A DNA stretch of 64,000 nt from an uncultured Candidatus Kuenenia sp. (GTDB lineage: Bacteria; Planctomycetota; Planctomycetia; Pirellulales; UBA1268): assembly GCA_964453165.1 (NCBI GenBank), contig CAYVNX010000001.1, positions 27,284 to 91,283 on the forward strand. Direction: 5' to 3'. This document shows positions 15,001 through 49,995 of the stretch, one piece after another (position 1 is the stretch's first letter; each line of letters starts with the position of its first letter). Position numbers and translations under genes: made by a program. The notes beneath the pieces are model-generated. The model was not told the DNA's origin. It was given only the letters and a program-made list of their open reading frames with translations, and made no database searches.

Positions 15001-18000
15001 TCGCCGGGCCGATCGTCAATGAGAGCGTCTTCTTCGATCTGCGCACCTACGAGAACGGTGTGCTCGTCGCTGAACTCGACATCGCCCCGGGGCCCGGTGA
15101 GGCTACGACCACGACCGACTCCCGCGGCGTGTTCAACCTGCCCGACTCGCTGTTGTCGGCCTACGACCAGAATCGCGATGGCTTGGTCGACTTCAGGGAC
15201 GGCATGATCGTGGTCGGGACCTACTCCGACAACGGGGTGGGAACGGTGATCAGCGCGATCGACTCGATCACCGGAGCCGATCTCGGCATTCCTCTCGTGG
15301 GGCTGCCCGGCCACAGCGCGAGCCTCGTCTCGACGCTCAAGTACACGACGCTGCTCCGCTGGCGACCCGACCAAACGATCGCGGGGGTGCCGGTCACTCC
15401 CGAACTGATCGAAACCGTGCTCAGTCGGATCCTCGCCGACGTGCCATCTACGTTCACTGACGACAACTTCTCCCCGTACATCGCCCTCTCGTCATCCGAT
15501 TCGGCCGAGGTGGCCAAGGCGGTGGAGACGCTGCGGTTCTCCTACACGCACCTCGGCAACGTGCTCGCGGTCCGCGCACTGCTCGACGAACTGGGGCTGG
15601 ACTTTGGTCGCGGGAGAGACGTCTGGGGATATGACCCCGATCCCGCGCGAGCCGACCGGGTCGAGGTGATCGCATTCAGTGCCTATCTCAATGCGATCGC
15701 CACGCGGTTCGGAGAGCGGCCGCTCGACGTACTTCACCGGTCGCCCGTGGCCGCGACGTTCGATCCCTTGAATCAGTCCCATGTCCGAGCCGTGTTGGTG
15801 GAGATGCTCTCCAACTATCCAACGAAGCGGCTCTTCGAACTCGAGCCTGCCGTGCTCGCCGAATTCCTCGCTGACCCGCGCGGCGTGGCGGCCGCCTTCC
15901 CCACCCTCGAGGCCCAGTCTCGAGTCGAGGCGGCGATCGAGCGGCACTTCGGCACGCTGCTCGACAACGTCTCGGAGGGGCTCGTGCTCACGCAGAAAGC
16001 CCTCGTCCGCCGAGTCGTCGATGGGGCGGCCTTGAGCGATCTCGCGCCGGCCCTCGGTACCCAACTGCTCGTGCCCAGCGTGGCGGGGCTGAAGCGGCTG
16101 CTCGTCGAGGAGCTCGCGGAGTCGCTCGTGGAGGACGGTTGGCAGAATCGGGACGACTTCCTCGCCGCCTACTATCCGGTCTTCTATCAGCCCAAGCCGG
16201 TCGAGAAGGCGAGCCAGCCGGTGGTCGGACTGATCGGGCTTGCAGTGGCCGGCGGCGACGCGGCCGGCGGCAGCCTGGTGACGCTCGGTGAAGGCGACGA
16301 GATCGTCCGCCTCCAACTCGACTACAAGGACTCGCTCGCCCCGCTCCTTGCGCCCGACTACGGCCTGGCGGTTCGCTACCGGCTCGGCGGCACCGCCCGG
16401 GAGGGCATCGACTACTCGATCGTGGGCAACGGCGGGATTCCGATCGCCTCGATCCGTGCCGGCGAGTCGACCGGAAGCTTGAGCCTGCGGGTGACGCCCG
16501 AGGCGCTCGCAGCCGGAGACCGGTACATCCAGATCGAGCTCCTCTCGGCCGACTCCGGGATGCGGGTCGACGACACCCGCGCAGTGGTCACGATCGCGCT
16601 CGGCGTAGCTGGCCTGCCCCCCGGTGAGGCTCCCACCGGCGGCCGCTCCAGCTTCGTGCCCCACGCGCTCGTCACCGCGACCGGAGCCGGGCCGGCGATC
16701 ATCCGCGCTCCGGCCGGTGGCAGGAACGTCGTGCTCCGCGGGGAGAACGGCCGCGCCGATTTGTTCGTCGTCGGCGATCAGCAGTCCTCCGGAGTCCCCT
16801 TCGTCGAGAACTTCCGCGCGGAGGACGGCGACCGCATCTGGATCGCTGCGGGCGACCTCGTGGCCCATCGACGCAAGAACCTTGTGACCGATCCGACGAA
16901 GCGGGCGGCGGCTCGCGAGGTTCTCGCAGCGCGATATGGCGAGGAACTGGTCTCGGGCTTCGAGCCCGCTCGGCTCGAAGAGCTGATCGCCGCTGAGATC
17001 GAGGCCACGTCGCTCCAGCCGTTCGTGATCACCGAGCTCAATACCTACGGGGGCTTCATCTTCGACGTGGTCGGTCGCAACCCCGTGGCGATGGTGAGCG
17101 ACTATTCGGTCAGCGCAGGGGACAAGGCCTGGGCGTCGCTGAGCATGAACCCGGCGGGCGGGACGGCCTTCGCGACGGTGATCACGCTTTCGAGCATGAG
17201 CGTGGCGGAGGACATAGCGGCGGGTACGAGGGTGGGCGAGGTGTTCGTCCAGTCGCCGGTCGCCGCCGGTGCCTCTCAGGTGACGCTGGCGGCGGGCGAC
17301 GGCGACGATGACAACACCCTCTTCGAGGTCGTCCGGGACGATTCGGGCTCGAGTCCCCGGTCGTTCCTCGTGGCCCGAGGGCCCTTCGATTACGAGACCG
17401 ACCCCCGACTGTCTGTTCGCGTGCGGGCCACCGGAGCCGATGGCGTCGCCTTCGAGCAGGTGTTCGTGCTTCAGGTCGGTGACGTTCCCGAGCAGGTGAT
17501 CGTCGAGGTCGCGGCGTCGGAGTCGGTCGTGCTCGACGCGTTGCTCTGGAGCCGGGATACGCTCGTCGTCCGGGGCGGCGGCCGGGTGATCCTTGACTCG
17601 CCCAATCGCCACACCGGTGGCGTGGTGGTCGAGGCCGGTGAGCTGGTCGTGCGCGACCCGGCTGGCCTCGGGTCAGGGCCGCTCGCGGTCCGCGGTGGGG
17701 CGCGGGTGGTCTTCGATGTCGGATCCGACCTGGTGGCCTTGGCGGCGCTCGACCTGGCTGAGGGAGCCTTGATCGACGTGGGGCTCGGCCGGCTGACGAT
17801 AGCGGCCGGTGGATACGACGCCACGGACCTCCGGGCCTGGATCAGCACCGCCCGAAACGGCGGGGCCTGGGATGGCCCCGGGATCACGAGCGCCGCGGTC
17901 GCTACGACCCCGAACCGGGCGATCGGCCATCGCGTGTTCGCCGACGGTTCGGTGATCGTCGGCTTTGCGGCGATCGGCGATGCCACGATGGACGGCCGCG

Positions 18001-34925: not shown

Positions 34926-35681
34926 CTATCCAAGGCCCTCGAAGAGCGCCGAGCCGATCCGGACGATGGTCGCTCCTTCCAGGATGGCGGCTTCGAAGTC
35001 GCCACTCATTCCCATCGACAACTCAGCGAGGTGGGATGGCTCCGGCAAATTCGGGACCAGTCGGTCGCGGAGTTCCCGTAGCCGGGCGAAGTCCCTCCGG
35101 GCGTCGGAGTGGGGCGCATCCGGGTGGCCCGCCATGCCCATCAGCCCTCGCAGCCTGACCTGAGTGGATCGCGCCGCGGCCGCGACGAGCGCCGGCACAT
35201 CGGCCTCGGCGGCGCCCGAGCGGCTCGGGTCGCTCGTGAGGTTGACCTCGATGAGCAGGTCGCATGGCGCAAGCCCTTGCCGCCCACCCTCGATCTCGAT
35301 GGCCTCGAGCAGCCGCAGGCTGTCGAGCGTCTCCAGCATGGCCGTCAGCGGGAGCGTGCGGCGGACCTTGTTCCGCTGCAGATGTCCAATCAGGTGCCAA
35401 CTGGGCGGAGGAGTCCAGGCGGCAAGAGCGGCCGACTTCTCCCAGATCGCCTGCGGCCGGCTCTCGGCCAGCTCGCGGCAGCCGGCGGCCAGCACGGCGG
35501 CCGTCGTGGCCGCATCGACGTATTTGGTCACCGCCACAAGCACGACCTCGGCGGGATCCCGGCCGGCCTGGCGGCAGGCCGCTGCCATTCGGTCACGGAC
35601 GGCAGCAACGTTCGCGAGCACCGGCCCGCATACCCGCGGGTCGGCGGTCACTGGTCCGGATGAGTTGTCAGGACCAGTCAC
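34926..35681 (-). CDS. yggS: YggS-family pyridoxal-phosphate homeostasis protein (start uncertain: GTG 35681 overlapping the upstream stop, or GTG 35651)
   Basis: VLVAVTKY (PLP Lys), HLIGHLQRNK, LRGLMGMA, LSMGMSGDFEAAILEGATIVRIGSALF. The 489-aa track ORF is an artefactual N-terminal extension overlapping the upstream gene. Confidence 0.85.
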   Translation of the reverse strand: MTGPDNSSGPVTADPRVCGPVLANVAAVRDRMAAACRQAGRDPAEVVLVAVTKYVDAATTAAVLAAGCRELAESRPQAIWEKSAALAAWTPPPSWHLIGHLQRNKVRRTLPLTAMLETLDSLRLLEAIEIEGGRQGLAPCDLLIEVNLTSDPSRSGAAEADVPALVAAAARSTQVRLRGLMGMAGHPDAPHSDARRDFARLRELRDRLVPNLPEPSHLAELSMGMSGDFEAAILEGATIVRIGSALFEGLG

Positions 35682-37288
35682 TGGATCTCGAGGGTGCGTT
35701 TGACTTCGCCCTTCCGCTTGATGTGGCCGAGGAGGAACTCGCAGGCCACGTTGCAGCCGAGCAGCGTGCGGTTTCGCGGGGCGTCGAGCGAGCGATACAC
35801 CAGCCACTGCTCGAGGCCGGCCTGCACGCGGAAACCGGCCGCCTGATGGGGCCCGAGGTTCTGTCGGGTGTCGGCCACCGTCAACTGACGCCAGGTCAGC
35901 GGCCGACCGATCCGGGCTGGCTCGAGGTCGAGCCAGAGCGGGGCATACAGCCGGCGACCGGGCGAGTCCTGCGCGAGCCGGAGGTTCCCGGCCGTCGCGG
36001 TGAAACCCCCGCGTACCGGCACCCGCCATTCCTGAAGCGCGAGCGGACAGGCCATGAATCTCACGGCAGCGTCGCGGATAACGATCTCGCGGGTCTCGTT
36101 CGCCGCCACGGCCTCGAGGCCCGCTGCCAGCGGCAGGGAGGAGGCGTATTTCAGCCAGCCGGTGTTCGGGTCGGAATCGGCAGCGGTCAACGCCGGTGGA
36201 GCGGACGTGGTCACGGCGTCGGCCAGCAGCAGCACCCGGTCCCGGGGCAAGAGGACGAGACTCCGCTCGAACTGCCGGCCTCCGGGCAGCGCGGCGGTCA
36301 GTTCGAGATAGCAGGCCTTCGCACCCGGCTCCCAACAGGCCACGCTCCACGGGCCCTCGGGATCCAGTCGCTCGCCGTCGACCGAGAGACTCCACTCCCA
36401 GTCACCCTCGGCAAGCATCCGGTCTCCGGTCGCGATCTCGAGCCGTGGCACGGTCTGCCGGTAGTCACAGAGAACCCGAATGGCCCGCGCATCCCAGCCG
36501 GTGCGCAGGATGGCGACAGCTGCCTCAGGGTCGTTCAGATGGAGCCGGAGGCACCGGGCAGCCGGTTTGGACCCTCGCCCCGCAGCCCGGAGCATCTTGA
36601 CGGTGCGGGCTCGGCGGCCTTCCAGCGTGGCAACCGCCGCGAGCAGCGGGGCCGTGAAGGGAAGGGGCATCAGGCCTGCGCCCTCGATCTGGCGGCCGTG
36701 CCGGCCGAGCAGGCGAACGGACGCGGTCGCAGCCTCCCGCCACCGCCGTTCAGTCGGCCCGCCCCAGATCGCGGCTCCGGTCGCCTCGGCCAACTCGCGA
36801 CAGGTCGTCCAGCGAACGACCCGCCGCACCATGTCCCCACCGCTTGCGACGTTTACGACTCCGCCGGGCGAGACGAGCCGATCGATTTCGGCTGTGAGCG
36901 CGTCGGTAGCCGTGGCTTCAAGGCAGCGGCAGGCCTCGATGTCGGCGAACAGGCGGGCGAGGGTGAGCAAGAACCGGGCGGAGCTGGTGTCGCCCCGCGC
37001 GAGGAACTCCTGGGCAACGCGAGCTTCCTTCACGAGCCGTTCCAACAGGCCTCCCGCCGAGCCGCCGGCGCGACGGGCCCGGGCCATCCACCCCAGGGCC
37101 CAGGCCGCTCCCTCCGCGGCGAGCCAGCGATCCCCAGGACATCCGGATCCGACGTCGTCGAGGCAGTCGGAAATGGCGGCCTCCACGAACCGGGCCCGGT
37201 GGGGGTTGCCGGCGCCGTCCTTCACCTGGCCGGCCAGCCGCACGAGCCGGTCGCGACAGGCGGGCGTCTCAGTCCATTCGGCGATCAT
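35678..37288 (-). CDS. Hypothetical protein, possibly heparinase II/III-like at the C-terminus (start uncertain: ATG 37288 or 37495)
   Basis: Protein-like composition begins at MIAEWTETPACRDRLV. The 130 aa upstream in the track ORF are Arg/Pro-rich and would overlap the divergent gene start. The C-terminal segment ...GRQFERSLVLLPRDRVLLLADAV... weakly recalls heparinase II/III-type beta-sandwich domains (unverified). Confidence 0.5.
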   Translation of the reverse strand: MIAEWTETPACRDRLVRLAGQVKDGAGNPHRARFVEAAISDCLDDVGSGCPGDRWLAAEGAAWALGWMARARRAGGSAGGLLERLVKEARVAQEFLARGDTSSARFLLTLARLFADIEACRCLEATATDALTAEIDRLVSPGGVVNVASGGDMVRRVVRWTTCRELAEATGAAIWGGPTERRWREAATASVRLLGRHGRQIEGAGLMPLPFTAPLLAAVATLEGRRARTVKMLRAAGRGSKPAARCLRLHLNDPEAAVAILRTGWDARAIRVLCDYRQTVPRLEIATGDRMLAEGDWEWSLSVDGERLDPEGPWSVACWEPGAKACYLELTAALPGGRQFERSLVLLPRDRVLLLADAVTTSAPPALTAADSDPNTGWLKYASSLPLAAGLEAVAANETREIVIRDAAVRFMACPLALQEWRVPVRGGFTATAGNLRLAQDSPGRRLYAPLWLDLEPARIGRPLTWRQLTVADTRQNLGPHQAAGFRVQAGLEQWLVYRSLDAPRNRTLLGCNVACEFLLGHIKRKGEVKRTLEIQ

Positions 37289-37676
37289 GCTGATCCGACG
37301 GGCCGACTGGGTGCGGCGCACCCGCGGCGGTGTGGGGGAGTCCGCAGGAGCGTTCGCCCCATGAGGCTCCCGCAACGGCGGTGCTGCAGGTTGGGAGGCT
37401 GCGTCGCCCTCCTCAGTCCGGCGGACCGGAGGCCGCCGCTTCCCGTTGCGGCTGGCGTGGGACGAATCCTGGGGGCCGCGGGTCTCGGTAGGCATGCTTG
37501 GGTGGCGGGTGTTGTGGAAGGAAGTGGCCGAGCCCGTGGTGCGGGTCCGCCGGGCGGAGATGGCGCGGGAACCCCCGCGGCGGTATCGTACCGGAGGCGG
37601 GGTGCGGCATCCACGAACCGCGGGCCGCAGCCTGTCCCCGTCCAGCTGAGTTTGTCCCCCGGGAGGATCACGAGCC

Positions 37677-38411
37677 ATGCCCAGCCCCGCTGCTCGCCCC
37701 TGGTGGTTTCCGTTCGCCGGGAACGCCGTGACGGTTGCCGCCGTGGCGATCGCCCTGCCGCCGGTCTCGCGGGCGGAGCCCCCTGTCGCCGTCGACCCTG
37801 CGCCGCCGGTCGATGCCCACCCCGACCTCCGGCGGCTCTCGCCCGATCATGCCATCTGGATCGACCCCGTCCGCCGTCAGGTCGTCGTCGGGGGCGTGGT
37901 CGCGCTCGCGGAAGGGCCGATCGAGGTCTTCGCCTGTCCCGAGCGAACCAAGGAGCACGAGGCGGTGGTGGCGACCCACTGCCCCGCGCGGTTGCTGCAT
38001 GCCGGTCTCCTGGCGATCGGCCTGGAGCCGGGGAATCCTGTCTCGTTTCACCCTGAGTACGCAGCGGCCCGAGGACCAGCGGTCGCGATTCGAGTCCGCT
38101 GGCTCGACGCGGCGGGCAAGGCCCAGGAGTCCGCCGCCCAGGAATGGGTTCGCAACACGAAGACGGGCCGGCACCTCGAGGCCGAGTGGGTGTTTGCCGG
38201 AAGCGGCTTCTGGCGTGACCCTGCCGACGGCGCTGAGCACTACCAGGCCGACGGCGGCGACATGATCTGCGTCTCGAATTTTCCCACGGCGTTGCTCGAC
38301 CTTCCGCTTGAAAGCAGCGAGTCCAACGAGGCGTTGCTGTTCGAAGTCTTTGCCGGCCGGGTGCCGGCCCGCGGCACGGACGTGGAACTCGTGCTTTCTG
38401 CCGCCGAGTGA
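37677..38411 (+). CDS. Secreted hypothetical protein (YdjY-like domain suspected)
   Basis: N-terminal hydrophobic segment AVTVAAVAIALPPVSRA. I associate the motif EVFACPERTKEHEAVVATHCPARLLHAGLLAIGLEPG with YdjY-domain proteins common in PVC genomes; this is not verifiable here. Confidence 0.55.
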   Translation: MPSPAARPWWFPFAGNAVTVAAVAIALPPVSRAEPPVAVDPAPPVDAHPDLRRLSPDHAIWIDPVRRQVVVGGVVALAEGPIEVFACPERTKEHEAVVATHCPARLLHAGLLAIGLEPGNPVSFHPEYAAARGPAVAIRVRWLDAAGKAQESAAQEWVRNTKTGRHLEAEWVFAGSGFWRDPADGAEHYQADGGDMICVSNFPTALLDLPLESSESNEALLFEVFAGRVPARGTDVELVLSAAE

Positions 38412-38432: not shown

Positions 38433-39293
38433 TTAGACCTGGCAGTGGGCCAGGATCTCGGCCGGGGTCGAGATGTAGCCGGTGTAGAAGGGCCCGAACT
38501 CGGCGTAGCGGGCGCTCGCCTCGTCGAATCGCATCGTGTAGACGATCTCCTTGAGAAATTCGGGCCGCCGGGCCCAGAGGGTCACGCCCCACTCCCAGTC
38601 GTCGAGGCCCACCGACACCGTGATCAATTGGCTGACGCGGCCACCGAACGACATGCCCGTGCGGCCGTGCTCGGCCATCAGCCGGCTTCGCTCGGCGAAC
38701 GGAAGCGTGAACCAATTTTCGCCGACCTTCCGCTTCTTGTTCATCGGATAGAAGCAGGCATTGGGCCAGGCTGGGAAATCGGGCTCGAGCCGGGCCTTCC
38801 GCATCATGTCTTCCCGAGCCGCGTAGCCCTGCACCTTGGCCTTCCAGGCGGGGCTGTCAGCCGTCTCACCCTCCTCGATCAGCCGTTGGCCGTATTGCTC
38901 GACGGTCGGCACGTATTCGCTCACCTCGGTGAGGCCCACGAACGAGTACGTGGGCACGATCGCCGCGCCGAGCGGACTCGCAAGCAGCCGTTGGTGGACG
39001 GCGTCCACCGCGAGCGGCGAGGGGTCGAGCACCATTAGTCCGAAGTCGGCTTTGTGGCCCGACACGATCCAGCTCTGGAGCCTGGTGGGCGCGTCCGGCC
39101 CGGTCGGATCGAGGGCGGCGGCAAAGGCCTCGCGGCCGGCCGCCCGTACCACCGGCGACAGCGAGGCGAGCAGCGGCCGATCAAACCGGTAGAAGGAGTG
39201 GGTCACGTGCCAGCCCGTCGCCGGTTGGATGGAGGTCTCGACCGCGTCGTGCGGAGAGGCGTGATGACCGTGAGCGGGAGCGGGCCGTGACAT
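38433..39293 (-). CDS. Chlorite dismutase-family protein (ChdC/HemQ-like coproheme decarboxylase candidate)
   Basis: 286 aa from ATG 39293 (MSRPAPAHGHH...). GWHVTHSFYRFDR, FYPMNKKR...ENWFTLPF..R..LM.EHG, VSQLITVSVGLDDWEWGVTLWA. The longer 461-aa track ORF runs antisense to the WXG-like gene and is rejected. Confidence 0.8.
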   Translation of the reverse strand: MSRPAPAHGHHASPHDAVETSIQPATGWHVTHSFYRFDRPLLASLSPVVRAAGREAFAAALDPTGPDAPTRLQSWIVSGHKADFGLMVLDPSPLAVDAVHQRLLASPLGAAIVPTYSFVGLTEVSEYVPTVEQYGQRLIEEGETADSPAWKAKVQGYAAREDMMRKARLEPDFPAWPNACFYPMNKKRKVGENWFTLPFAERSRLMAEHGRTGMSFGGRVSQLITVSVGLDDWEWGVTLWARRPEFLKEIVYTMRFDEASARYAEFGPFYTGYISTPAEILAHCQV

Positions 39294-39446: not shown

Positions 39447-39719
39447 ATGGGACAGGCAATCGTCGATCCAGCCGAGCTTCGCCGTTTCGCGGGCAGCCTG
39501 CGGACCTTCAGCGAGGAGGTTCTCGCCCACATGCAGATGGTGCAGCGACAGCTGGCCGCGCTCGGCGCCACCTGGCGGGATCAGGAGCAGCAGAAGTTCG
39601 CCGAGGAGTTCGAGGCCCAGCTCACGACGTTCAAACGATTCGCCGAATCGACCGGCGAGTACGTGCCGTATCTGATTCGGAAGGCGGAGCGGGTCGAGGA
39701 ATACCTGCAGCAGCGGTAG
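39447..39719 (+). CDS. WXG100-like small helical-hairpin protein (W-x-D variant), P1 of the T7SS-like operon
   Basis: 90 aa; GAGGGG 9 nt upstream of the ATG. N-terminus AIVDPAELRRFAGSL parallels the canonical WXG100 I.V.PE.L...A. Central LGATWRDQEQQKFAEEFE lies between two predicted helices. High third-position GC and Lys/Glu/Gln/Phe-rich composition, unlike the antisense ORF. Confidence 0.6.
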   Translation: MGQAIVDPAELRRFAGSLRTFSEEVLAHMQMVQRQLAALGATWRDQEQQKFAEEFEAQLTTFKRFAESTGEYVPYLIRKAERVEEYLQQR

Positions 39720-39765: not shown

Positions 39766-40374
39766 ATGGCCGACCAGGCCGATGTCAAATCGATCGACAC
39801 GCTGGCCTTCGTGCGCACGGCGTTTGCGTCGTTCGCCCATGAAACGGGCCAGGCCCTGGCGGAGATCGAGATTCAGGGACAGCGGGCCGTCGACTGGATC
39901 TGCGTCGATCAGGCCGCCTACTGGAAGACCGAGATCCGCAAGGCCAACGAGGTCGTCAACAAGGCGATCAAGGACCTGGAGCATTGCCGGACGTTCAAGA
40001 AGGTGGGCGATACCACCCCCTCGTGCATCGAGGAGAAGAAGGCCCTGGAGAAGGCCCGCCAGAAGCTCGCCCGGGCCGAGGCCAAGGCGGAGGCCGTGCG
40101 GCGGTGGACGCCGATCGTGCAGCAGCAGTTTCGCGAGACGGGTGTCCGGCTGGTGCGGTTCCGCGACGTGATCGACGTCGATTGCCCCCGGGCGATGGCC
40201 CAACTCGAGAAGATGCTGCGGGCGCTCGACGCCTACCGCCAGCTCTCGTCTCCCACGGGCGGCGCGGAGGGTGGCACTGGCTCGGCGGGGCCGAGCGTGA
40301 CCAGGCAATTGGAGGAGCCACCACCGGCTGCCGCCGGGCAGGCCGGGCCGGTTTCTGGAGGTGCGGCACCATGA
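39766..40374 (+). CDS. Helical protein of unknown function, P2 of the T7SS-like operon
   Basis: 202 aa. Helix-rich, charged (KKALEKARQKLARAEAKAEAVRRW), with a Gly/Pro/Ala-rich C-terminal tail. Its stop overlaps the P3 start (ATGA at 40371-40374). Confidence 0.6.
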   Translation: MADQADVKSIDTLAFVRTAFASFAHETGQALAEIEIQGQRAVDWICVDQAAYWKTEIRKANEVVNKAIKDLEHCRTFKKVGDTTPSCIEEKKALEKARQKLARAEAKAEAVRRWTPIVQQQFRETGVRLVRFRDVIDVDCPRAMAQLEKMLRALDAYRQLSSPTGGAEGGTGSAGPSVTRQLEEPPPAAAGQAGPVSGGAAP

Positions 40375-40607
40375 GAGTCTGTGACCTTTCCAGCGGCGCC
40401 TCGAAACTCGCCAACGCGCTCAAGCAGATGAATCTCAAGTGGGATGCCGCCACCGAGACCTGGAACGACGCGCGGGCAAAAGCCTTCCACAAAGAACATG
40501 TGGAGCCGCTTCTGCCGAGCGTGAAGGAGACGCTCGACGCCCTCGGCCGGCTCGCGGAGGTGCTCGACCGCGCCGCCCGCGACGTGAGTGACAGCGACGG
40601 GGCGTGA
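40371..40607 (+). CDS. Second small WXG100-like helical-hairpin protein (W-x-D variant), P3
   Basis: 78 aa: MRVCDLSSGASKLANALKQMNLKWDAATETWNDARAKAFHKEHVEPLL...LDALGRLAEVLDRAARDV. Central TWND..AKAF sits between two helices. ATG 40371 is translationally coupled to P2. Confidence 0.5.
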   Translation: MRVCDLSSGASKLANALKQMNLKWDAATETWNDARAKAFHKEHVEPLLPSVKETLDALGRLAEVLDRAARDVSDSDGA

Positions 40608-40662: not shown

Positions 40663-43600
40663 GTGAGTTCGAACGCCCCCGAGAGCGCCGCATCGCCCGC
40701 AGCCACAGCCGAGGCCCGCACCGCGTATCACCCCGACGTGCTGCGGCAGCAGATGGCGATTCTCCGTCGGGAGTCGGCGGCCAGGGCCAAGGCTGAGGCG
40801 GAGATCGCCGCGGCGTACGAAGAGGCTACGACGGCCGCGCAGGCCGCGGCGCAGCGGTCGCTCGCCGCCACCCGGGAGAAGCACGCCGCCGAGATCGAGG
40901 CCACTCGGCGGAAACACGATGACGTGAAGCGGCAGGCGGATGAGTTTCGGGCGGCAGAGCAGAAGAAGCTCGACGAGTTTCGCCAGGCGAAAACCAAGGC
41001 GATCAAGGGGGAGTGTGCCCAGCGGGTCGAAGACCTCAACGAGACCGAAACCTTCGAGCAGATCCGCTTCAAGGAGGTGGTGAAGTCGAAGACGCCAGAG
41101 CCGCAGCAGGCGGCAGCCGCGCTCGACCAGAAGCTCTCGGCCGGGCTTGCCCAACTCCGGGAGGCCGCCACCGCCGCGACCAAACTGCTCGCCTCGTGGG
41201 GCGTGAAGGGAGGCGAGTCCGCGGGAGCCGTTGCCGCGGCCGAGACAAAGGGGCCAGTCGAAGCGATCCTGGCGGCTCGCGATGCGGTGTTGGAGATCAC
41301 CAAGGCGATCAAGGGCGACGATGCGGCCAAGGCGGCGCTCTCGGGGGGTATTCGCGGGCTCTTGAGCGGCAACAAGGCCGAGAAGCGGACGGAACTCGCC
41401 GCCCGGCTCACTGAACTCGAATGCCACCTAGCGCGGGCCAACAGCCTCGAGCCGGCGGCGCGGCAATGGATCGCGGCGAAGAAGGAGGAGCACGCCCGCC
41501 GGCTCGAAACACAATTTCGCGAGGAGGATGCCGCCCGCAAGGCGGCCCTCAAGCAGGCGCTCGCCGCCGCTGCGGCGGCCCGCGACACGGCACTGGCCGA
41601 CCTGGAGGCGAAGGTGGCCGATGGCTCGGCCAAGCTCGCCGCCAAAGTGGGCGACCATCTGCGGGGAGCCGAGGAGAAGTACCCCGCCCGCGTGGCCGCC
41701 CTCGAGGCCGCGCTCGCGGCCGATGTGGATCGGCTCGAGCGGGAACGGGCCGAGCAACTCGCCGCCGCAGAGCGGACGCGGGACGATGCCCTGGCCGCGA
41801 TGACCGCCGCCTGGCGTCAGGCTCGGGAGTCGACGGCCGCGGTCTACGCCGACGCGACGCGGCTCGACGCCGAGGCGTTCAGGCCCTGGGCGGTGCTCGC
41901 CGATCCGACGGTGCCGCTGCCGGTCGACGCTCCACCGGGGCTCCGGTTCGGCGATCTGGCCCTGTCGCTCGAGCGGGTGCCCGGGGGCGTGTCGAACGTC
42001 GAAGAGCTCAACTCCTTCGGGCCGATCACCTGGTCGCAGCCGGCCACGGTCGCCTGGCCGGTCGCAGCCTCGCTCGTGATCAAGACCTCGGCCGGAGAGA
42101 AGGAGACGGCCTCGGCCCTCATCCAGGCCCTGATGCTCAGGATCGCCACCGGCATTCCCGCTGGCCAAAGCCGATTCACGATCATCGACCCGCTCGGCCT
42201 GGGCAAGCAATTTGCGGGCTTCATGCACCTCGCCGACCACGACGAGCTGCTCGTCACCAGTCGGATCTGGACGGAGCCGCAACTGATCGAGCAGAAACTC
42301 GCCGACATCACCGAACAGATGGAGGTGGTGATCCAGAAGTATCTGCGGAACGAATACGAGTCGATCGGTGCCTACAACGCCGATGCCGAAGTGCCGGAGC
42401 CGTACCGATTCGTGGCTGTGGCCAACTTCCCGGCCAACTTCAACGAGACGAGCGCCCGGCGGCTGGCCAGCATCGCCGCCTCGGGGCCGCGGTGCGGGGT
42501 GTATGTGATCGTGTCGATCGACCCCTCGCTTCAGATGCCTTCGGGCTTCAGCCGGGCCGAACTCGAGCAGCACGCGACCGTACTCGAGCTGAAGAACGGC
42601 ACCTTCACCTGGGCCGACCCGGAGTTTTCCAAGTGGCCGCTCGCGGTGGAACAGGCTCCACCCGACGATCTCTTCACCACGATCATCCAGCGGGTGGGGT
42701 CGGCGGCCAAGGCAGCCAAGCGGGTCGTGGTGCCGTTCGACCGCGTGGCCCCGAAGGAGGAGGACTGGTGGCACGGCAGCACGGCCAACGAGGTCATCGC
42801 CCCGCTCGGTCCAGCCGGCGCCAAGAAGCTTCAGTATCTCAAGCTCGGCAAGGGCACCAGCCAGCATCTGCTGATCGCCGGCAAGACGGGCTCCGGTAAA
42901 TCGACCCTGATGCACGCGATGATCACGAGTCTGGCGCTGCAGTACAGCCCCAACGAGATCCAGTTTTATCTGATCGATTTCAAGAAGGGAGTCGAGTTCA
43001 AGCTCTACGACCACTACGCGCTGCCGCATGCGCGGGTGATCGCGATCGAGAGCGAACGAGAGTTCGGCCTGTCGGTGATGGAGCAACTCGATCGCGAACT
43101 CAAGCGGCGCGGTGATCTGTTTCGCGAACTGTCGGTGCAGAACGTGGCCGGCTTCCGCCAGACGGGCCATCCCGATCCGATGCCCCGGATCCTCCTCCTG
43201 ATCGACGAGTTTCAGGAGATCTTCGTCGAGGACGACAAGATCGCCCAGGATGCCTCGCTGATCCTCGACCGACTGGTCCGGCAGGGCCGAGCCTTCGGCA
43301 TCCACGTGCTCCTCGGGTCGCAGACCCTGGGCGGCTCCTACAGCCTGCCACGGGCCACGATGGGGCAGATGGCGGTACGGATCGCACTGCAGTGCAACGA
43401 GGCTGACTCGAGTCTGATTCTCAGCGACGACAACACGGCGGCCCGACTGCTGACCCGGCCGGGCGAGGCGATCTACAACGACGCCAACGGCATGGTGGAG
43501 GGCAATAATCCCTTTCAGGTCGTGTTTCTCACCGACGAGCAGCGGGAGCAGTATCTCGGCGACCTGCGAAAGCTGGCCGACCGGCGGACCGACATTCCCC

Positions 43601-44682
43601 ACCTCCATCGGATCGTATTCGATGGCAACCAGGCAGCTGATCCGGCCCTCAATCCGTTGCTGACGGAGATGCTTGCTTCGGGCACGGTGGGTGGTCGCGA
43701 TCTGGTCGCGCCCCTGGCCTGGCTGGGTGATGCGATCGCGATCAAGGATCCGACGGCGGCGATCTTCCGCCGCCAGGCGGGGGCCAATTTGCTGATCGTG
43801 GGGCAGCGGGAGGACCTCGGCACGAGCCTGTTGGCCCTGTCGATCGTGAGCCTCGCGGCCGAGCACGATCCCCATCCTGGCGGCGGACTCGGCAAGGCCG
43901 CCCGGTTCGTGGTGCTCGAGCCGGCGATCGCCGAGGAGAAGCCCGACCTGATGCTCGCGAATCTGGCCAGCCACCTGCCCCATGAGATGGAGCTCGCCGG
44001 GCGGCTGGGAGTGACCGAGGCGATGGCAGCCCTGGCCGCGGAGGTGAAGCGGCGGCTCGATGAGCAGGTGCTCGACGGCGAGTCGGTCTACCTCGTGATC
44101 CGTGACCTGGGCCGGTTCCGCGAGCTGCGGAAGTCGGAAGGGGATTTCGGCTTCGGCGGTTTCGGCGGCGAAGAGAAGAAGGCCTCGCCGGCCGACAACC
44201 TCCTGAGCGTGCTCCGCGACGGGCCGACGGTGGGCATCCATGTGATCTGCTGGTGCGACTCGCTCATGAACCTCCAGCGGACATTCGACCGCAACGCGAT
44301 CAAGGAGTTCGAACTCCGGGTGCTCTTCCAGATGAGCAGCAACGACTCCAGCACGCTGATCGACAACCCGGCCGCCGGCAAACTCGGCCCGCAGCGCGGG
44401 CTCTTCGTGCACGAGGAGACGGGCACGGTGGAGAAGTTCCGCCCCTACTCGTTTCCCTCGCCCGAGTGGCTCACCACGATCGCGGCCCAGATGCGCGCGC
44501 GGCCCCAGGGCACTCCGGTCGAGCGTCCCCGTCCTGCGGCTGCCGCGTCCGCTCCGCCGACCGACGAGAAGAAGAGCAGCTTCTCGTTCGGCGGGGGCGG
44601 CGACTTCAATTTCACGAAACTCCTCGACGACGGCCCCGACGAGCCGCCCGCTGACGATGGCGCACGCGGATTTCTTGGTTGA
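40663..44682 (+). CDS. FtsK/SpoIIIE-family multi-P-loop ATPase (EccC/EssC-like) with coiled-coil N-terminus and no TM helix, P4
   Basis: GTG 40663 is preceded by GAGG 8 nt upstream (alternatives GTG 40588 or an internal ATG). 40663-41880 is Ala/Glu/Lys/Arg-rich coiled coil. Canonical Walker A GKTGSGKST (42880-42906) and Walker B ILLLIDEFQE (43189-43218). It is flanked by degenerate P-loop-like modules: LVIKTSAGEKETAS / RFVAVANFP / GVYVIVS at approx 42060-42540, and LLIVGQREDLGTS / VYLVIRDLGRF / GIHVICWCDS at approx 43780-44400. No hydrophobic stretch long enough for a TM helix. Confidence 0.85.
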   Translation: MSSNAPESAASPAATAEARTAYHPDVLRQQMAILRRESAARAKAEAEIAAAYEEATTAAQAAAQRSLAATREKHAAEIEATRRKHDDVKRQADEFRAAEQKKLDEFRQAKTKAIKGECAQRVEDLNETETFEQIRFKEVVKSKTPEPQQAAAALDQKLSAGLAQLREAATAATKLLASWGVKGGESAGAVAAAETKGPVEAILAARDAVLEITKAIKGDDAAKAALSGGIRGLLSGNKAEKRTELAARLTELECHLARANSLEPAARQWIAAKKEEHARRLETQFREEDAARKAALKQALAAAAAARDTALADLEAKVADGSAKLAAKVGDHLRGAEEKYPARVAALEAALAADVDRLERERAEQLAAAERTRDDALAAMTAAWRQARESTAAVYADATRLDAEAFRPWAVLADPTVPLPVDAPPGLRFGDLALSLERVPGGVSNVEELNSFGPITWSQPATVAWPVAASLVIKTSAGEKETASALIQALMLRIATGIPAGQSRFTIIDPLGLGKQFAGFMHLADHDELLVTSRIWTEPQLIEQKLADITEQMEVVIQKYLRNEYESIGAYNADAEVPEPYRFVAVANFPANFNETSARRLASIAASGPRCGVYVIVSIDPSLQMPSGFSRAELEQHATVLELKNGTFTWADPEFSKWPLAVEQAPPDDLFTTIIQRVGSAAKAAKRVVVPFDRVAPKEEDWWHGSTANEVIAPLGPAGAKKLQYLKLGKGTSQHLLIAGKTGSGKSTLMHAMITSLALQYSPNEIQFYLIDFKKGVEFKLYDHYALPHARVIAIESEREFGLSVMEQLDRELKRRGDLFRELSVQNVAGFRQTGHPDPMPRILLLIDEFQEIFVEDDKIAQDASLILDRLVRQGRAFGIHVLLGSQTLGGSYSLPRATMGQMAVRIALQCNEADSSLILSDDNTAARLLTRPGEAIYNDANGMVEGNNPFQVVFLTDEQREQYLGDLRKLADRRTDIPHLHRIVFDGNQAADPALNPLLTEMLASGTVGGRDLVAPLAWLGDAIAIKDPTAAIFRRQAGANLLIVGQREDLGTSLLALSIVSLAAEHDPHPGGGLGKAARFVVLEPAIAEEKPDLMLANLASHLPHEMELAGRLGVTEAMAALAAEVKRRLDEQVLDGESVYLVIRDLGRFRELRKSEGDFGFGGFGGEEKKASPADNLLSVLRDGPTVGIHVICWCDSLMNLQRTFDRNAIKEFELRVLFQMSSNDSSTLIDNPAAGKLGPQRGLFVHEETGTVEKFRPYSFPSPEWLTTIAAQMRARPQGTPVERPRPAAAASAPPTDEKKSSFSFGGGGDFNFTKLLDDGPDEPPADDGARGFLG

Positions 44683-44711: not shown

Positions 44712-44815
44712 GGTGCCACCGGACTCGCGTCCGGGGCTTGTATTCGCGGTGACTGTCGCGGCCATACCAGCCCCCGACGCAAGTCGGGGGGCTCCGCGTG
44801 GTGGCGGATCCCGCT
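44712..44815 (-). repeat. REP-like double-hairpin element, copy 2 (minus orientation)
   Basis: The reverse complement aligns with 29533-29630. Hairpins on the plus strand at 44719-44734 (ccggac-tcgc-gtccgg) and 44769-44793 (agcccccgac-gcaa-gtcggggg(g)ct, one bulged G). Read on the minus strand, the element starts approx 75 nt after the htrA stop. Confidence 0.7.
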
Positions 44816-44889: not shown

Positions 44890-46008
44890 TCAGCGGGGGC
44901 GGCGGCCGATCTCGACGGTGAGCATCAGCGGCTTGCCTTCGCGGATGACTTCGATCGGCAGTTCGGCGCCGACCTCGGCCCGGGTGAGCATGAGCACGAG
45001 TTCGGCCGGCGACGAGATCGGCTCGTCGTCGAATCGCACGATCACGTCGCGGGGCCTGATCCCGGCGAGGTCGCCGGGAGCACCCGGCTCGGTCGCCATC
45101 ACGAGCACGCCCCGTGAGCCATCCACCGTGCCCCGGAGCGCCAGGCCGAGGTAGCCCCGCTCCACGTGGCCGAGCCGGAGGATGGCCTCCGCCACTTCCC
45201 GGGCGGTGTTGCTCGGAATGGCAAACCCGATCCCGCGGGCGTCACCGCCGGCGATCGCCGTGGTGATCCCGATGATCCGTCCGTTGACATCGATCAGCGG
45301 TCCCCCTGAGTTGCCCGGGTTGATCGCGGCGTCGGTCTGGAGGAACTCCTGGAAGGGATCGTTCACGACGCCGCGACGGCCCACACCGCTCAGGATGCCG
45401 TAGGTCAGCGTCCGATCCAGGCCGAAGGGGTTTCCGATCGCCCAGACCATCTCGCCAACTTCGACGGTATCGCTGTCGCCCCAGGCCGCTGCCGGAAGGC
45501 CCTCGGCGTCGATCTCCAGCACGGCCAGGTCGGTGCCGGCGTCGGCCCCGACGAGCCGGGCCGGAAACCGGCGGCCATCGGCCAGGGCGACGTTGATCCG
45601 ATCGGCCCGAGAGACGACGTGATAGTTCGTCAGAATCACGCCGTTGGATTCGATGATCACTCCCGAGCCGATCGACTCGTCATTGACACCGCCCGGAGGC
45701 AGGCCGTGCAGGGCCGCGATCTCGTCGGCGAAACTCCGAAGCCGGCGGTCGGCCGTGACGTTGACCACAGCCGGGCCGACCAGCCGGGCCAGCGTGGTGA
45801 AGAGCTTTGCCACCGGCGCCAGCCGCGCGCCGGCCGCGGCGTCGGCAATCGCGGCCAACTCGGCCCGCGTGCGGGCATACTGGATCCGCCCGATGAAGGA
45901 GGGCCAGGCGATCAGGCCGACGAGCACGACGAAGCCGAGAAAGAGCAAGGCTGTCCGCCAGCGTGCGGTGAAGGCCGATGCGGTCTGGTCGAAGTTCGCG
46001 TCGCTCAT
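44890..46008 (-). CDS. htrA: HtrA/DegP-family serine protease with one PDZ domain
   Basis: N-terminal TM/signal ALLFLGFVVLVGLIAW. Catalytic triad contexts TNYHVV, TDLAVLEI, GNSGGPLIDVNGRIIGI. C-terminal PDZ-like region. Confidence 0.9.
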   Translation of the reverse strand: MSDANFDQTASAFTARWRTALLFLGFVVLVGLIAWPSFIGRIQYARTRAELAAIADAAAGARLAPVAKLFTTLARLVGPAVVNVTADRRLRSFADEIAALHGLPPGGVNDESIGSGVIIESNGVILTNYHVVSRADRINVALADGRRFPARLVGADAGTDLAVLEIDAEGLPAAAWGDSDTVEVGEMVWAIGNPFGLDRTLTYGILSGVGRRGVVNDPFQEFLQTDAAINPGNSGGPLIDVNGRIIGITTAIAGGDARGIGFAIPSNTAREVAEAILRLGHVERGYLGLALRGTVDGSRGVLVMATEPGAPGDLAGIRPRDVIVRFDDEPISSPAELVLMLTRAEVGAELPIEVIREGKPLMLTVEIGRRPR

Positions 46009-47219
46009 GCCCGGACTTCTAACTCGAGGGCGAGGGTTCTCACCAGGTCGAGGGCTGCCTTCGCGGCCCGGCTGGCTGCGAGGTCGGGGCCGCCGCCGAG
46101 CACGTGCTCGAGCATGCGGCCGCCCGACGCAGTCGCGACCGCGAACCGAATTGCGGTCCTGCCATCCGCGACGGGATAGGCCGAGCCGATTCCCAGGCCG
46201 ACCGACCCGCCGAAGGACGCCCGAGCCTGCTCGGCGAGCGCGGCTGCCTCCTGCGTTCCGTCAGCAGCGGTTACGAGGCCACCGCGGAAGACCCCGGGCT
46301 GGCCCGCCGTGAACCGGCGGTGGCTTGCCTGAGCTGCCAGGCTCGTCGCCCGCCCGGCAGTGGCCGCCTCACCGATCGCCAGCGTCGCGCCGGAGGCGGC
46401 CAGGGCGGCGAGCGTCGCATCCTCCAGTTCGTCGTCTTCCTCACCGAAGACGAGTTGCCCGAGGCAGTCGCGAATCAGCACTTCGGTCGCGGCGATCTTC
46501 TCGCGACATTCGGCCTCGTTCGGGCCCCGGGCCGCAATCCGCAGCGTGATCGTGGCCTCGTGGGCCGTGATGCCGACGAGCGGATCCCGCCCGCGGCGAA
46601 TCAGATCGGGCAGCATCGCCTCGAGCGCGCTCTCGCCGGCACCGAAGCACTTGATCCGACGCTGGATGATCGTGGCCTGCTCGGGCAAGAGCCTCGCCAA
46701 CGCCGGAGCGACGGTGGCCTGCCACATCAGCTTCATCTCGGACGGCACGCCCGGGAGCGCGACGACCCGCACCGGGCGGCCGGCGACATGCAGGTCGAGG
46801 TCGATGCCGGGCGCCGTGCCGAACGGATTGGGGATTTCACGGCTGCCGGCCGGGAACAGGGCCTGGCGGAGGTTCGATTCCGGCATCGGCATCCCCCGGC
46901 GGGCGAACCGCGATTCGATCGCGGCGACGGCCTCCGACGATTGCTCCAGTGGCACGCCAGCCAGCGCGGCCAGCACGTCGCGAGTGAGGTCGTCGGCTGT
47001 CGGGCCGAGCCCGCCGGTCGCCACGACGATATCGGCCCGGCCGGCCGCGGTCCGAAACGCGGCCAGCCCCGCCTCGAGCGTGTCGGCGGCCGTGACGTGA
47101 TAGGTCACCGGTATTCCGAGCACGCCGAGCTCGGCGGAGAGCCAACGGCTGTTGGTGTCGAGCCGCTGGCCCGAAACGAGTTCGTCACCGATGGCGATAA
47201 CTTCCGCTTGTATGGACAT
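46005..47219 (-). CDS. cinA: CinA-family competence/damage-inducible protein (MoCF-binding plus nicotinamide-nucleotide amidase domains)
   Basis: Starts MSIQAEVIAIGDELVSGQRLDTNS; VVATGGLGPTADDLT. The stop overlaps the htrA start by 4 nt. The 64-aa N-terminal extension in the track is rejected. Confidence 0.85.
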   Translation of the reverse strand: MSIQAEVIAIGDELVSGQRLDTNSRWLSAELGVLGIPVTYHVTAADTLEAGLAAFRTAAGRADIVVATGGLGPTADDLTRDVLAALAGVPLEQSSEAVAAIESRFARRGMPMPESNLRQALFPAGSREIPNPFGTAPGIDLDLHVAGRPVRVVALPGVPSEMKLMWQATVAPALARLLPEQATIIQRRIKCFGAGESALEAMLPDLIRRGRDPLVGITAHEATITLRIAARGPNEAECREKIAATEVLIRDCLGQLVFGEEDDELEDATLAALAASGATLAIGEAATAGRATSLAAQASHRRFTAGQPGVFRGGLVTAADGTQEAAALAEQARASFGGSVGLGIGSAYPVADGRTAIRFAVATASGGRMLEHVLGGGPDLAASRAAKAALDLVRTLALELEVRA

Positions 47220-48681: not shown

Positions 48682-49995
48682 GTGCCAATGCGGGACGTGC
48701 GAAGCCTGATGGCCGTCTTGGTCTGTGCCGTCGCGCTCCCCGTGGGTGGAGCCGCCTCGGAGGCCCGCCGCTCGGCGATCGTGATCGCGATCGAGAGCCA
48801 GCGGGATTCGGTCGTCAACATCCACGGCCAGAAACTCGTTCCGTCGGGCGACGACGGCGCGGGTGAGCTTCGCCGGGTCAACGGCATGGGCACCGGGGTG
48901 GTGATCGACCCCCGGGGCTACGTCGTGACGAACTTCCACGTGGTGGACGGGGTCAAGCGGATCGAAGTCACCCTGGCCAATGGTCGAACGGTCGCCGCCT
49001 CGCTCGTATCCCACGACCCGCGGACCGATCTGGCCGTCATTAAGATCGATTCGGACCAGTCGCTCCCCGTCGCCCGGATCGGCACGTCGAGCGACCTGAT
49101 GATCGGTGAGACCGTGCTGGCGCTCGGCAACGCCTACGGCTACGAGCACACGGTCACCCGGGGCATCATTTCGGCCCTCCATCGCAATGTGGAGGTCAGC
49201 CGCACGCAGCGGTACGACGACCTGATCCAGACCGACGCCAGCATCAACCCGGGCAATTCGGGTGGCCCGCTTCTCAATGTCGATGGTGAAGTGATCGGGA
49301 TCAACGTGGCGGTGCGGGCGGGCGCGCAGGGCATCGGTTTCGCGATCCCGATCGACAAGGTGCTCGATGTCGTGTCGCGGCTGCTCTCCGTGGAGAGGGT
49401 CTCCCACACCTGGCACGGGCTGGTCGTGCGCGGAGACCGTGACGGAGGGGCCGTCGTGGAAGGCGTCCACCGCCAAAGCCCGGCCGAGGGCGTCGGCATG
49501 CGAGCTGGCGACCTGATCACCCAGGTCGGTGACATGCCGGTTGGCTGCCAACTCGACCTGGAGCGGGCGCTGTTGGGCCACAAGCCGGGTGAGCGGGTGC
49601 CGGTGACTGTGGTGAGGGCCGGGGCTCAGGAGCGGATCGAGTTGCCACTGGTTGCCGTCCGCAAGGATTCGGCAAGCCTGGATGATCGGTGCTGGCGGGA
49701 GTTCGGCGTGCGGCTCGAGCCGGTGCAGGCTGCGGCCGTCCAGAAGCTCCAATCGCGGTATCGCGGCGGCCTGCTCGTGCAGGATGTTCGCGACGATGGG
49801 CCGGCGGCCGAACAGGGCATCCGCAAGGGTGACATCCTCGTCGGCCTGCATGTCTGGGAGACCATCGCCCCCGACAACATCGCCTACATCCTCGAGAAGG
49901 CTGAGCAGGAGCACCTCAATCCCATCAAGTTTTATGTGCTCAGGGGTCGGGAGACCCTGTTTGGCCACCTCGTCTCCGACACGATCCGCCGGTAG
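48682..49995 (+). CDS. Second HtrA/DegP-family serine protease with PDZ domains
   Basis: Signal-like LMAVLVCAVALPVGGAAS. TNFHVV, TDLAVIKI, GNSGGPLLNVDGEVIGI. Two PDZ-like segments. Confidence 0.85.
   Translation: MPMRDVRSLMAVLVCAVALPVGGAASEARRSAIVIAIESQRDSVVNIHGQKLVPSGDDGAGELRRVNGMGTGVVIDPRGYVVTNFHVVDGVKRIEVTLANGRTVAASLVSHDPRTDLAVIKIDSDQSLPVARIGTSSDLMIGETVLALGNAYGYEHTVTRGIISALHRNVEVSRTQRYDDLIQTDASINPGNSGGPLLNVDGEVIGINVAVRAGAQGIGFAIPIDKVLDVVSRLLSVERVSHTWHGLVVRGDRDGGAVVEGVHRQSPAEGVGMRAGDLITQVGDMPVGCQLDLERALLGHKPGERVPVTVVRAGAQERIELPLVAVRKDSASLDDRCWREFGVRLEPVQAAAVQKLQSRYRGGLLVQDVRDDGPAAEQGIRKGDILVGLHVWETIAPDNIAYILEKAEQEHLNPIKFYVLRGRETLFGHLVSDTIRR

Follow-up and report, generated by a model that had tools for sequence, protein, structure and literature searches.

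To our knowledge, type VII secretion is understood in Actinomycetota and Bacillota only. Its motor ATPases, such as EccC, EssC and YukB, carry tandem FtsK-like P-loop domains and are linked to WXG100 genes; catalysis is left to one domain, and degenerate domains serve regulation and substrate docking. Here we describe an ATPase that resembles them in these respects, encoded with three small upstream genes in a 64,000-nucleotide stretch of DNA (the window) from an uncultured Candidatus Kuenenia sp. of the Planctomycetota (assembly GCA_964453165.1, contig CAYVNX010000001.1, positions 27,284 to 91,283).

The closest described systems are known from computational work. Operons in which WXG100 genes are linked to coiled-coil, three-domain EssC/YueA-like ATPases were noted by Zhang et al. 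2012 in footnote 6 of their Table 1 (PMC3482391). Bell et al. 2024 described, among the extensions to CoCoNuT systems of type III-A, EssC homologs that have three ATPase domains, the central one alone being active, and in which an N-terminal coiled coil of more than 200 residues replaces the FHA and transmembrane (TM) regions; these are accompanied by two WXG100 proteins (one motif-less) and a coiled-coil-nuclease fusion, and, as the authors remark on the missing TM domains, "a different mechanism appears likely" (PMC11090510). In Helicobacter pylori the ESAT-6-like HP0062 and the FtsK/SpoIIIE ATPase HP0066 are regarded as a conserved "WXG100 secretion system" (PMC4978471). Relatives that have no TM helix and keep only the middle domain active have been mentioned three times before, always in silico. 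Bell et al. also cite Anantharaman et al. 2012. On type VII secretion in planctomycetes we found nothing in the literature beyond the 2012 footnote (PMC3482391), and such a system goes unmentioned in a 2025 review of the phylum.

Judged by its sequence, the window gene is a member of this computationally described family, since its first companion gene product is HP0062-like, the ATPase is homologous to plasmid-encoded ATPases of the family and the gene order is the same. By analogy, the ATPase would power a "minimal type VII-like" cassette of four genes that handles or exports a WXG-like helical complex, a reading to which we give a probability of about 0.5. The initial annotation of the ATPase gene had called its architecture atypical; the same combination had already been published in other phyla (PMC3482391, PMC11090510). 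The annotation had also overlooked the WXG100-like and coiled-coil genes directly upstream, which define the system. What is new against the published descriptions is a predicted arm of ~24 nm, a membrane hairpin at the arm tip together with its losses, a kinase fusion in Gemmataceae and a housekeeping, vertically inherited context without a toxin. The cassette and the parts of the ATPase are as follows (aa, amino acids; pLDDT, predicted local distance difference test).

39447..39719 (+): WXG-A, 90-aa WXG100/ESAT-6-like protein, first gene of the cassette (Pfam WXG100)
39766..40374 (+): mid202, 202-aa helical/coiled-coil protein, conserved, without a family match
40371..40607 (+): WXG-B, 78-aa WXG100-like small helical protein (Pfam WXG100, below threshold)
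40663..44682 (+): EssC-like three-module ATPase, 1339 aa (list of open reading frames, ribosome-binding site and GTG start, homologs)
40732..41196 (+): arm helix 1 of the ATPase, aa 24-178, with a kink at 144-145 (AlphaFold, pLDDT >90 over most of its length)
41197..41373 (+): arm tip, aa 179-237, short helices in Gly-rich sequence (alignment, hydropathy, AlphaFold)
41374..41877 (+): arm helix 2, aa 238-405, 168 residues leading back to the ATPase head (AlphaFold)
41935..42762 (+): module 1, degenerate FtsK-like P-loop domain, aa ~425-700 (profile against PDB, model, Foldseek)
42763..43617 (+): module 2, canonical FtsK/SpoIIIE ATPase, aa 701-985 (Pfam PF01580, PDB matches)
43618..44532 (+): module 3, degenerate FtsK-like domain, aa 986-1290 (hhalign against module 2)
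44533..44679 (+): disordered Pro/Ala-rich, acidic tail, with the conserved motif FNFTKLLDD at 44605-44631

Modules, arm and tail of the ATPase

Residues of the ATPase are numbered from the GTG codon at 40663. The initial annotation had named this position as a possible start, and it is upheld, the codon being GTG and not ATG: a GAGG lies 8 nt 5′ of it, the preceding gene (WXG-B) stops at 40607 and the N-termini of homologs line up on it at MS(S/T)xxPE. An alternative GTG at 40588 was rejected, as it overlaps the WXG-B stop codon and disagrees with the N-termini of homologs. The G+C content of the window is ~70% and that of the third codon positions (GC3) of the ATPase reading frame (40588/40663-44682, +) is 0.86; more than 120 full-length homologs have been found, with identities of 60-94%.

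The ATPase is homologous to the EccC/EssC-type tandem FtsK ATPases, as had been proposed, and both PDB matches and structural comparison bear this out. AlphaFold modelled aa 406-1339 with low overall confidence (pLDDT 56), and the model served only to read off the pattern of secondary structure and as the query of a 3Di search, the relative placement of the domains being disregarded; in that search Foldseek aligned it over 870 columns with D1-D3 of Thermomonospora curvata EccC (4nh0, E 2e-18) and over 480-570 columns with two-domain EssC/EccC constructs. At the same time the protein stands outside the curated EccC/EssC families, its NCBIfam scores being far below the cut-offs (TIGR03924 EccCa, 109 bits against 509; TIGR03925 EccCb, 104 against 347; TIGR03928 EssC, 99 against 778) and these matches being confined to module 2. 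With the FtsK model NF007615 the score is 31 bits, where the cut-off is 1566.

Sequence and model together support three tandem FtsK/SpoIIIE-type P-loop domains, of which the central one alone would be catalytically competent. The peptides quoted in the initial annotation were all found in their places, and its statement that only the middle module is canonical holds. Pfam FtsK_SpoIIIE (PF01580) matches the whole protein once, on module 2 (E 4.7e-33), and the single GxxGxGK[ST] and the single hhhhDE motif of the ATPase both lie there: Walker A is GKTGSGKST at aa 740-748 (G740-T748, catalytic K746; 42880-42906) and Walker B is LLLIDEFQE at aa 844-852 (D848, E849; 43192-43218), followed by GIHVLLGSQ at aa 879-887. 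Module 2 is ~95% identical across the family alignment and among PDB sequences matches EccC D1 (58.6 bits), and also EccC D2, EccC5, YukB and FtsK, the FtsK motor structures with E values of 1e-12 to 1e-13. In contrast to EccC and EssC, which have the DUF+D1+D2+D3 arrangement, the window protein has three modules, with Walker motifs in one. By sequence its module 2 is nearest to D1; Bell et al. call the active central domain the D2 homolog (PMC11090510).

In modules 1 and 3 the Walker motifs are degenerate in all relatives. The stand-ins for Walker A and Walker B are LVIKTSAGEKETAS (aa 471-484) and RFVAVANFP (aa 582-590) in module 1, and LLIVGQREDLGTS (aa 1043-1055) and VYLVIRDLGRF (aa 1142-1152) in module 3, which retains the FtsK-type motif RVLFQMSSNDSS. 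When alignments including relatives at 46-50% identity were compared by hhalign, module 3 matched module 2 with a probability of 94% (E 1.5e-7, 259 columns) in a register that places LLIVGQREDLGTS on Walker A and VYLVIRDLGRF on Walker B; shallow alignments (Neff 1.4) had given hhalign P values of no more than 0.004-0.012, and the module 3 profile found no match by itself among PDB sequences. Module 1 resembles module 2 weakly by hhalign (P 0.026); its assignment as a P-loop domain is based on the match of its profile to the EssC structures 5fv0/4lya (E 0.002, around the Walker B strand), on the AlphaFold model and on the Foldseek alignment. Beta-alpha-beta alternation is present in the model of all three modules, with pLDDT 70-86 in module 1, so that the P-loop fold suggested earlier for modules 1 and 3 finds backing in hhalign, the EssC profile match and Foldseek.

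A Kyte-Doolittle scan of the whole protein found no TM helix, because no 19-residue window exceeds a mean of 1.43; the highest values fall on beta-strands of the P-loop modules. The absence of a TM segment had been claimed before and persists with the start at GTG 40663. Pfam likewise gave no match to FHA, FtsK_alpha or FtsK_gamma (KOPS-reading) domains, the lack of the last having also been reported, and the protein differs from FtsK/SpoIIIE in having neither a multi-pass membrane domain nor the layout of a single alpha/beta motor plus gamma. With no TM helix, no FHA, no FtsK gamma domain and one competent module, the straightforward reading of the sequence is a soluble or peripherally tethered motor.

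The N-terminal 405 residues contain 27% Ala, 11% Glu, 9% Arg and 7% Lys, and bulky hydrophobic residues are enriched at heptad positions a and d (z = 5.4 against shuffled sequences). AlphaFold predicts for aa 1-431 (pLDDT 87) helices at 24-143, 146-178 and 238-405. The continuous coiled coil of ~400 aa described in the initial annotation is in this sense helical and heptad-patterned, but it is not one coil; two stretches are joined by the Gly-rich tip at aa ~179-237. With 155 and 168 residues these stretches are of similar length, the invariant residues of the family alignment are concentrated at aa 22-48, where the first stretch begins, and at 336-409, where the second ends, and the nearest folds in Foldseek are antiparallel coiled-coil hairpins (the MukB elbow, the dynein stalk, a chemoreceptor, Rad50 and Smc, all weak at E >=6e-3). 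On these grounds aa 1-405 most likely fold back on themselves as an antiparallel coiled-coil arm ~24 nm long, which brings the N-terminus to the same end as the ATPase head; the packing of helix 24-178 against helix 238-405 is our inference from the model. The likeness to the arms of SMC, Rad50 and MukB, the dynein stalk and chemoreceptor hairpins is a structural analogy only, consisting in a long intramolecular antiparallel coiled coil that has a P-loop ATPase head at one end and a site of interaction at the far tip; there is no sequence relationship, and the head is FtsK-type, not ABC-type.

Hydropathy of 80 loci and the family alignment were used to survey the arm tip for membrane segments. 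Most planctomycete orthologs carry there an insert of ~55 aa with two strongly hydrophobic segments (19-residue Kyte-Doolittle means of 2.0-3.2), which form a TM pair at aa ~230-300 of those proteins. It occupies columns ~270-330 of the alignment and maps to aa ~226-238 of the window ATPase (41338-41376). Orthologs of this type have a cytoplasmic N-terminal domain of ~230 aa followed by two TM segments, and are in this respect like EssC with its order FHA-FHA-TM-TM-ATPases. A 165-residue helix, which separates the TM site from the first ATPase module, sets them apart from EccC/EssC. In the window ATPase and its closest relatives the hairpin is cleanly deleted, leaving ALSGGIRG|LLSGNK. The previous statement that the coiled coil replaces the FHA/TM region is therefore correct for the window protein, but not for most orthologs, whose mid-region keeps the two-helix hairpin that the window lineage has deleted. 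When a neighbour-joining tree was rooted with the plasmid relatives, orthologs with the hairpin were spread over the whole planctomycete clade, and it was absent in at least 4 places (locus L077; L043 with L059; the L020-L056 group; the window with L001-L004); the outgroup plasmid ATPases do not have it. No split-off TM protein was found beside the ATPase gene in the TM-less lineages. Since the hairpin is present in most orthologs and deleted here, the family appears from sequence to be normally anchored through the arm tip, with the anchor lost in the window lineage. Docking of the coiled coil to an envelope structure, raised in the initial annotation, is purely conjectural.

The acidic tail peptide FNFTKLLDDGPDEPPADDG (aa 1315-1333) begins with the motif FNF[ST]K[LMF]LD[DE] (aa 1315-1323), which is invariant in Pirellulales-type orthologs, whether or not they have the hairpin, and is missing from Isosphaeraceae-type relatives; F1315, N1316, F1317, L1321 and D1322 are invariant in the family alignment. 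It is probably a lineage-specific partner-binding peptide. A membrane-targeting helix was considered and judged unlikely, as the motif is acidic and clade-specific.

The cassette, its relatives and its distribution

The genes for WXG-A, mid202, WXG-B and the ATPase follow each other on the same strand and are tightly packed, the stop codon of mid202 overlapping the ATG of WXG-B (ATGA at 40371-40374). WXG-A matches Pfam WXG100 with E 1.9e-7, its 31.7 bits exceeding the gathering score of 27.3, and has a W-R-D turn in place of W-x-G. The best PDB match of its family profile is H. pylori HP0062 (3fx7/2gts, E 2.5e-17), followed by EsxB and EsxA; HP0062 is matched over its full length and shares the unusual W-R-D turn. 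In 57 loci WXG-A is 47-96% identical, and its WRD and the C-terminal RKAERVEEYLQQR are nearly invariant. WXG-B, conserved in 64 loci, falls just below the gathering score of Pfam WXG100 (E 3.6e-5, 24.4 bits), matches TIGR03930 with E 8e-5 and has a W-x-D turn; the common ground of the two proteins is the W-x-D...F turn motif only (hhalign P 0.003). The protein between them, mid202, is conserved in 58 loci with a variable, disordered C-terminal tail. Searches of Pfam, NCBIfam, PHROGs, PADLOC and PDB profiles assigned it to no family and returned coiled-coil noise only; its profile weakly resembles the cargo-position proteins of Rhodococcus (E 7e-4) and Caballeronia (0.03) plasmids. It occupies the slot in which relatives encode a toxin or a coiled-coil-fused nuclease, and no immunity gene follows it. 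An LXG-like or YxxxD/E export motif in mid202 was dropped as a candidate because it is not conserved.

Plasmid loci of Caballeronia, Rhodococcus and Helicobacter have the order WXG gene, cargo gene, small-protein gene, ATPase gene, as in planctomycetes. The window ATPase is 29% identical to the Rhodococcus protein over 857 aa (E 5e-98) and 27.6% identical to that of Caballeronia over 935 aa (E 2e-75), in both cases across all three modules, and the WXG-A profile matches the WXG genes of these two plasmids with 1e-23 and 1.6e-14, respectively. TM helices are absent from the plasmid ATPases, each of which has one GKTGxGKS (GKTGSGKS in Helicobacter); the Helicobacter ATPases differ by their size of 820-930 aa with a short N-terminal region, and by loci in which an HNH toxin and a SUKH immunity gene take the cargo slot. 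Around the Caballeronia cassette lie genes for VWA, CARF, PP2C phosphatase, Ser/Thr kinase and AAA proteins, and the Rhodococcus copy adjoins TerD genes.

In the plasmid of Helicobacter sp. NHP19-012 (locus L083, 4156-5178) the WXG-A profile matches the first ~40 residues of the HNH toxin (E 2.4e-4), which seems from its sequence to carry a WXG-like N-terminal targeting domain; the SUKH (SMI1/KNR4) immunity gene then follows.

The likeness to the operons of Zhang et al. and Bell et al. lies in the three FtsK/HerA domains with the central one active, the lack of TM segments in the window protein, its N-terminal coiled coil of at least 200 aa in place of FHA/TM, and the two small WXG100-type genes, one divergent, with a coiled-coil gene between them in the same order. 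The differences are several. The window cassette lies on a chromosome amid housekeeping genes and is inherited vertically, whereas the published operons tend to lie in mobile or defence islands (VWA, TerY-P triad, CoCoNuT), a tendency that is not part of their definition. Its mid202 is helical with a disordered tail and without a nuclease or toxin domain, and there is no immunity or DNA-mimic gene. The planctomycete helical region is ~400 aa long and predicted to form a hairpin arm, most planctomycete members have the membrane hairpin at its tip whereas the published description is of no TM domains, and the FNFTKLLDD tail of the Pirellulales type and the kinase fusion of Gemmataceae are further differences.

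Synteny of the four genes extends to at least 57 planctomycete loci. When one genome was scanned for each species, at least 570 loci with ATPase relatives were obtained, the hosts of those listed being planctomycete-type metagenome-assembled genomes together with Singulisphaera acidiphila DSM 18658 and Singulisphaera sp. Ch08; named carriers also include Kolteria novifilia and Urbifossiella limnaea. The three small genes precede the ATPase gene in essentially every locus with enough upstream DNA, that of S. acidiphila included. An exhaustive search of 1.84 billion representative proteins returned 3,224 ATPase matches below 1e-30, and the best 150 clusters (50% identity), of 1,020-1,594 aa, all align across the three modules. 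In Gemmataceae-type orthologs an N-terminal Ser/Thr kinase is fused to the three-module ATPase (Pfam Pkinase E 1e-39 in P0162 from Urbifossiella limnaea, 1573 aa, and 3e-45 in P0243, 1594 aa). The fusion recalls the kinase and phosphatase genes beside the Caballeronia plasmid relative.

Isosphaeraceae-type and Pirellulales-type loci have these four genes alone in common. Co-conservation ends with them, and the flanking genes scanned include no EccB/D/E/MycP or EsaA/EssA/EssB partners, a difference from EccC/EssC systems within these flanks. The nearest flanking genes are:

37677-38411 (+): YdjY-domain protein
38433-39221 (-): chlorite-dismutase-family (HemQ-like) protein
44890-46008 (-): HtrA-type protease

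These three neighbours are kept in most Pirellulales loci but not in Isosphaeraceae; CinA and YggS-like genes are further neighbours in the window. No toxin, nuclease or immunity family was detected in the window cassette by Pfam and profile searches, and no defence genes flank it in the window. From these comparisons the context appears to be housekeeping and vertically inherited, not a mobile island, and the inheritance of the cassette appears vertical across Planctomycetia.

Possible functions of the cassette

If the cassette is a minimal type VII-like system, the ATPase would assemble as a hexamer, as in the FtsK/EccC/EssC family, and ATP hydrolysis by module 2 would drive the threading or delivery of a helical WXG-A/WXG-B complex, probably together with mid202. 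As with the degenerate domains of EccC/EssC, module 1 may be structural or regulatory and module 3 may dock the substrate, for which the invariant C-terminus of WXG-A (RKAERVEEYLQQR) is a candidate signal. The arm would tether the motor, directly through the hairpin in most species and indirectly in the window lineage, so that it would act at or across the cytoplasmic membrane, the crossing of the membrane by the cargo being putative.

A number of observations speak against this reading. The window ATPase lacks a TM helix, and further membrane components of type VII systems are not conserved along with the cassette. According to the model, the 24-nm arm would place the ATPase ring ~20 nm off the bilayer, which is not the geometry of EccC/EssC, and the hairpin is unlikely to serve as a channel because it was lost at least 4 times. 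WXG-A is 72-96% identical where the HemQ-like neighbour is 68-86% identical; WXG-A and the ATPase modules are conserved as much as their housekeeping neighbours or more, which would be uncommon in secreted effectors. The planctomycete envelope has two membranes, and no component for the outer one is evident. In the searchable literature we found no experimental study of any member of the TM-less, middle-domain-active subfamily, and no secretion experiment for the Helicobacter systems either. Secretion proper is uncertain, since the hairpin is dispensable, the ring would lie ~20 nm away, membrane partners are not co-conserved and the cargo is conserved like a housekeeping protein.

A rival reading is a housekeeping cytoplasmic machine, in which a motor on an SMC/Rad50-like arm assembles, disassembles or positions WXG-like and coiled-coil polymers or bundles at the cytoplasmic membrane in the service of planctomycete-specific cell biology, for instance invagination of the membrane, division by budding or structures of the envelope. 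Such a role is possible, but clearly less probable than the type VII-like one. It would account for a core-genome-like distribution (at least 570 species-level genomes, and three modules in all of the best 150 clusters), syntenic housekeeping neighbours, extreme conservation, the lack of a toxin, nuclease or immunity gene, the repeated loss of the hairpin while the gene was kept and the predicted length of the arm, and the kinase fusion of Gemmataceae suggests regulatory wiring. Nevertheless, every annotated homologous system has been read as one of secretion or conflict, whereas this alternative is built on inference, and we know of no WXG100 protein that has been studied and is not secreted. 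Planctopirus limnophila has moreover been reported with a single FtsK homolog (PMC6952346), so the cassette may not be phylum-wide. Rather doubtful is the bolder form in which, throughout planctomycetes, an EssC-like motor on an SMC-like 24-nm arm exports no toxin and instead remodels or assembles the ultra-conserved ESAT-6-like proteins for a task peculiar to these FtsZ-less budding cells with extensive membrane invaginations, its tip being inserted in the membrane in most species and free in the window species.

An intracellular conflict or defence module, similar to the relatives in CoCoNuT type III-A and TerY-P islands and releasing or activating helical effectors on phage attack, is also improbable, to about the same degree as that bolder form. 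The surroundings of the Caballeronia and Rhodococcus plasmid copies point that way, as do the literature reading (PMC11090510), the Gemmataceae kinase fusion and the matches of the FtsK-like module to SspH and mad8 in PADLOC; these last are limited to the generic P-loop module, however, mid202 has no nuclease or toxin domain, and the window neighbours (YdjY, chlorite-dismutase family, HtrA, CinA, YggS-like) include no defence genes. Defence islands turn over fast, whereas here synteny is stable and inheritance vertical. Many sources annotate the ATPase as "DNA segregation ATPase FtsK/SpoIIIE", and a second DNA translocase of this type, for example for chromosome transfer into the bud (compare the soluble SftA of Bacillus), would fit the matches of module 2 to FtsK motor structures and the division of planctomycetes without FtsZ (PMC6952346). 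We consider it very unlikely: the ATPase scores better on EccC/EssC than on FtsK, two of its three modules are dead, Pfam finds no FtsK alpha or gamma (KOPS-reading) domain, the linkage to WXG100 genes is constant, and a canonical FtsK of 750-900 aa has been reported in planctomycetes (PMC6952346).

Whichever function applies, the planctomycete cassette is a chromosomal, single-copy, highly conserved and toxin-free version of the family, and adds a conserved, unannotated four-gene system to planctomycete biology. Forms that keep the hairpin and forms that lack it exist in nature alongside one another and offer a comparison for the role of a minimal WXG100/FtsK module and its need for a membrane. 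The practical value is modest until there is experiment; the importance would rise if the housekeeping role were shown.

Other features of the window

Past the ATPase gene, a consensus scan alone marked one terminator-like site, the count of such sites in the window not being above shuffle expectation:

44719..44734 (+): terminator-like GC hairpin, 37 nt past the ATPase stop codon

The promoter scan gave no candidate and the Rfam scan of the window no match. ARAGORN called an 80-nt tRNA-Gly(GCC) at 46816-46895 (+), within the CinA-like gene and on the opposite strand; Rfam at gathering score has no tRNA there, and the call is probably a false positive of GC-rich sequence. Upstream of the cassette, a 666-aa reading frame without a Pfam match (35678-37678, -) lies between the YggS-like and YdjY genes. 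At its left end the window cuts a stop-free reading frame (33-18347, +; GC3 0.885), which has a length of at least 6,104 aa; it has no Pfam match at E <=1e-5, has a composition dominated by Ala, Gly, Val, Thr and Asp, ends in a C-terminus with the dockerin-like stretch DFNDDGRVNVFDLMALV and is probably a giant planctomycete surface protein. A second HtrA-type protease is encoded at 48682-49995 (+).

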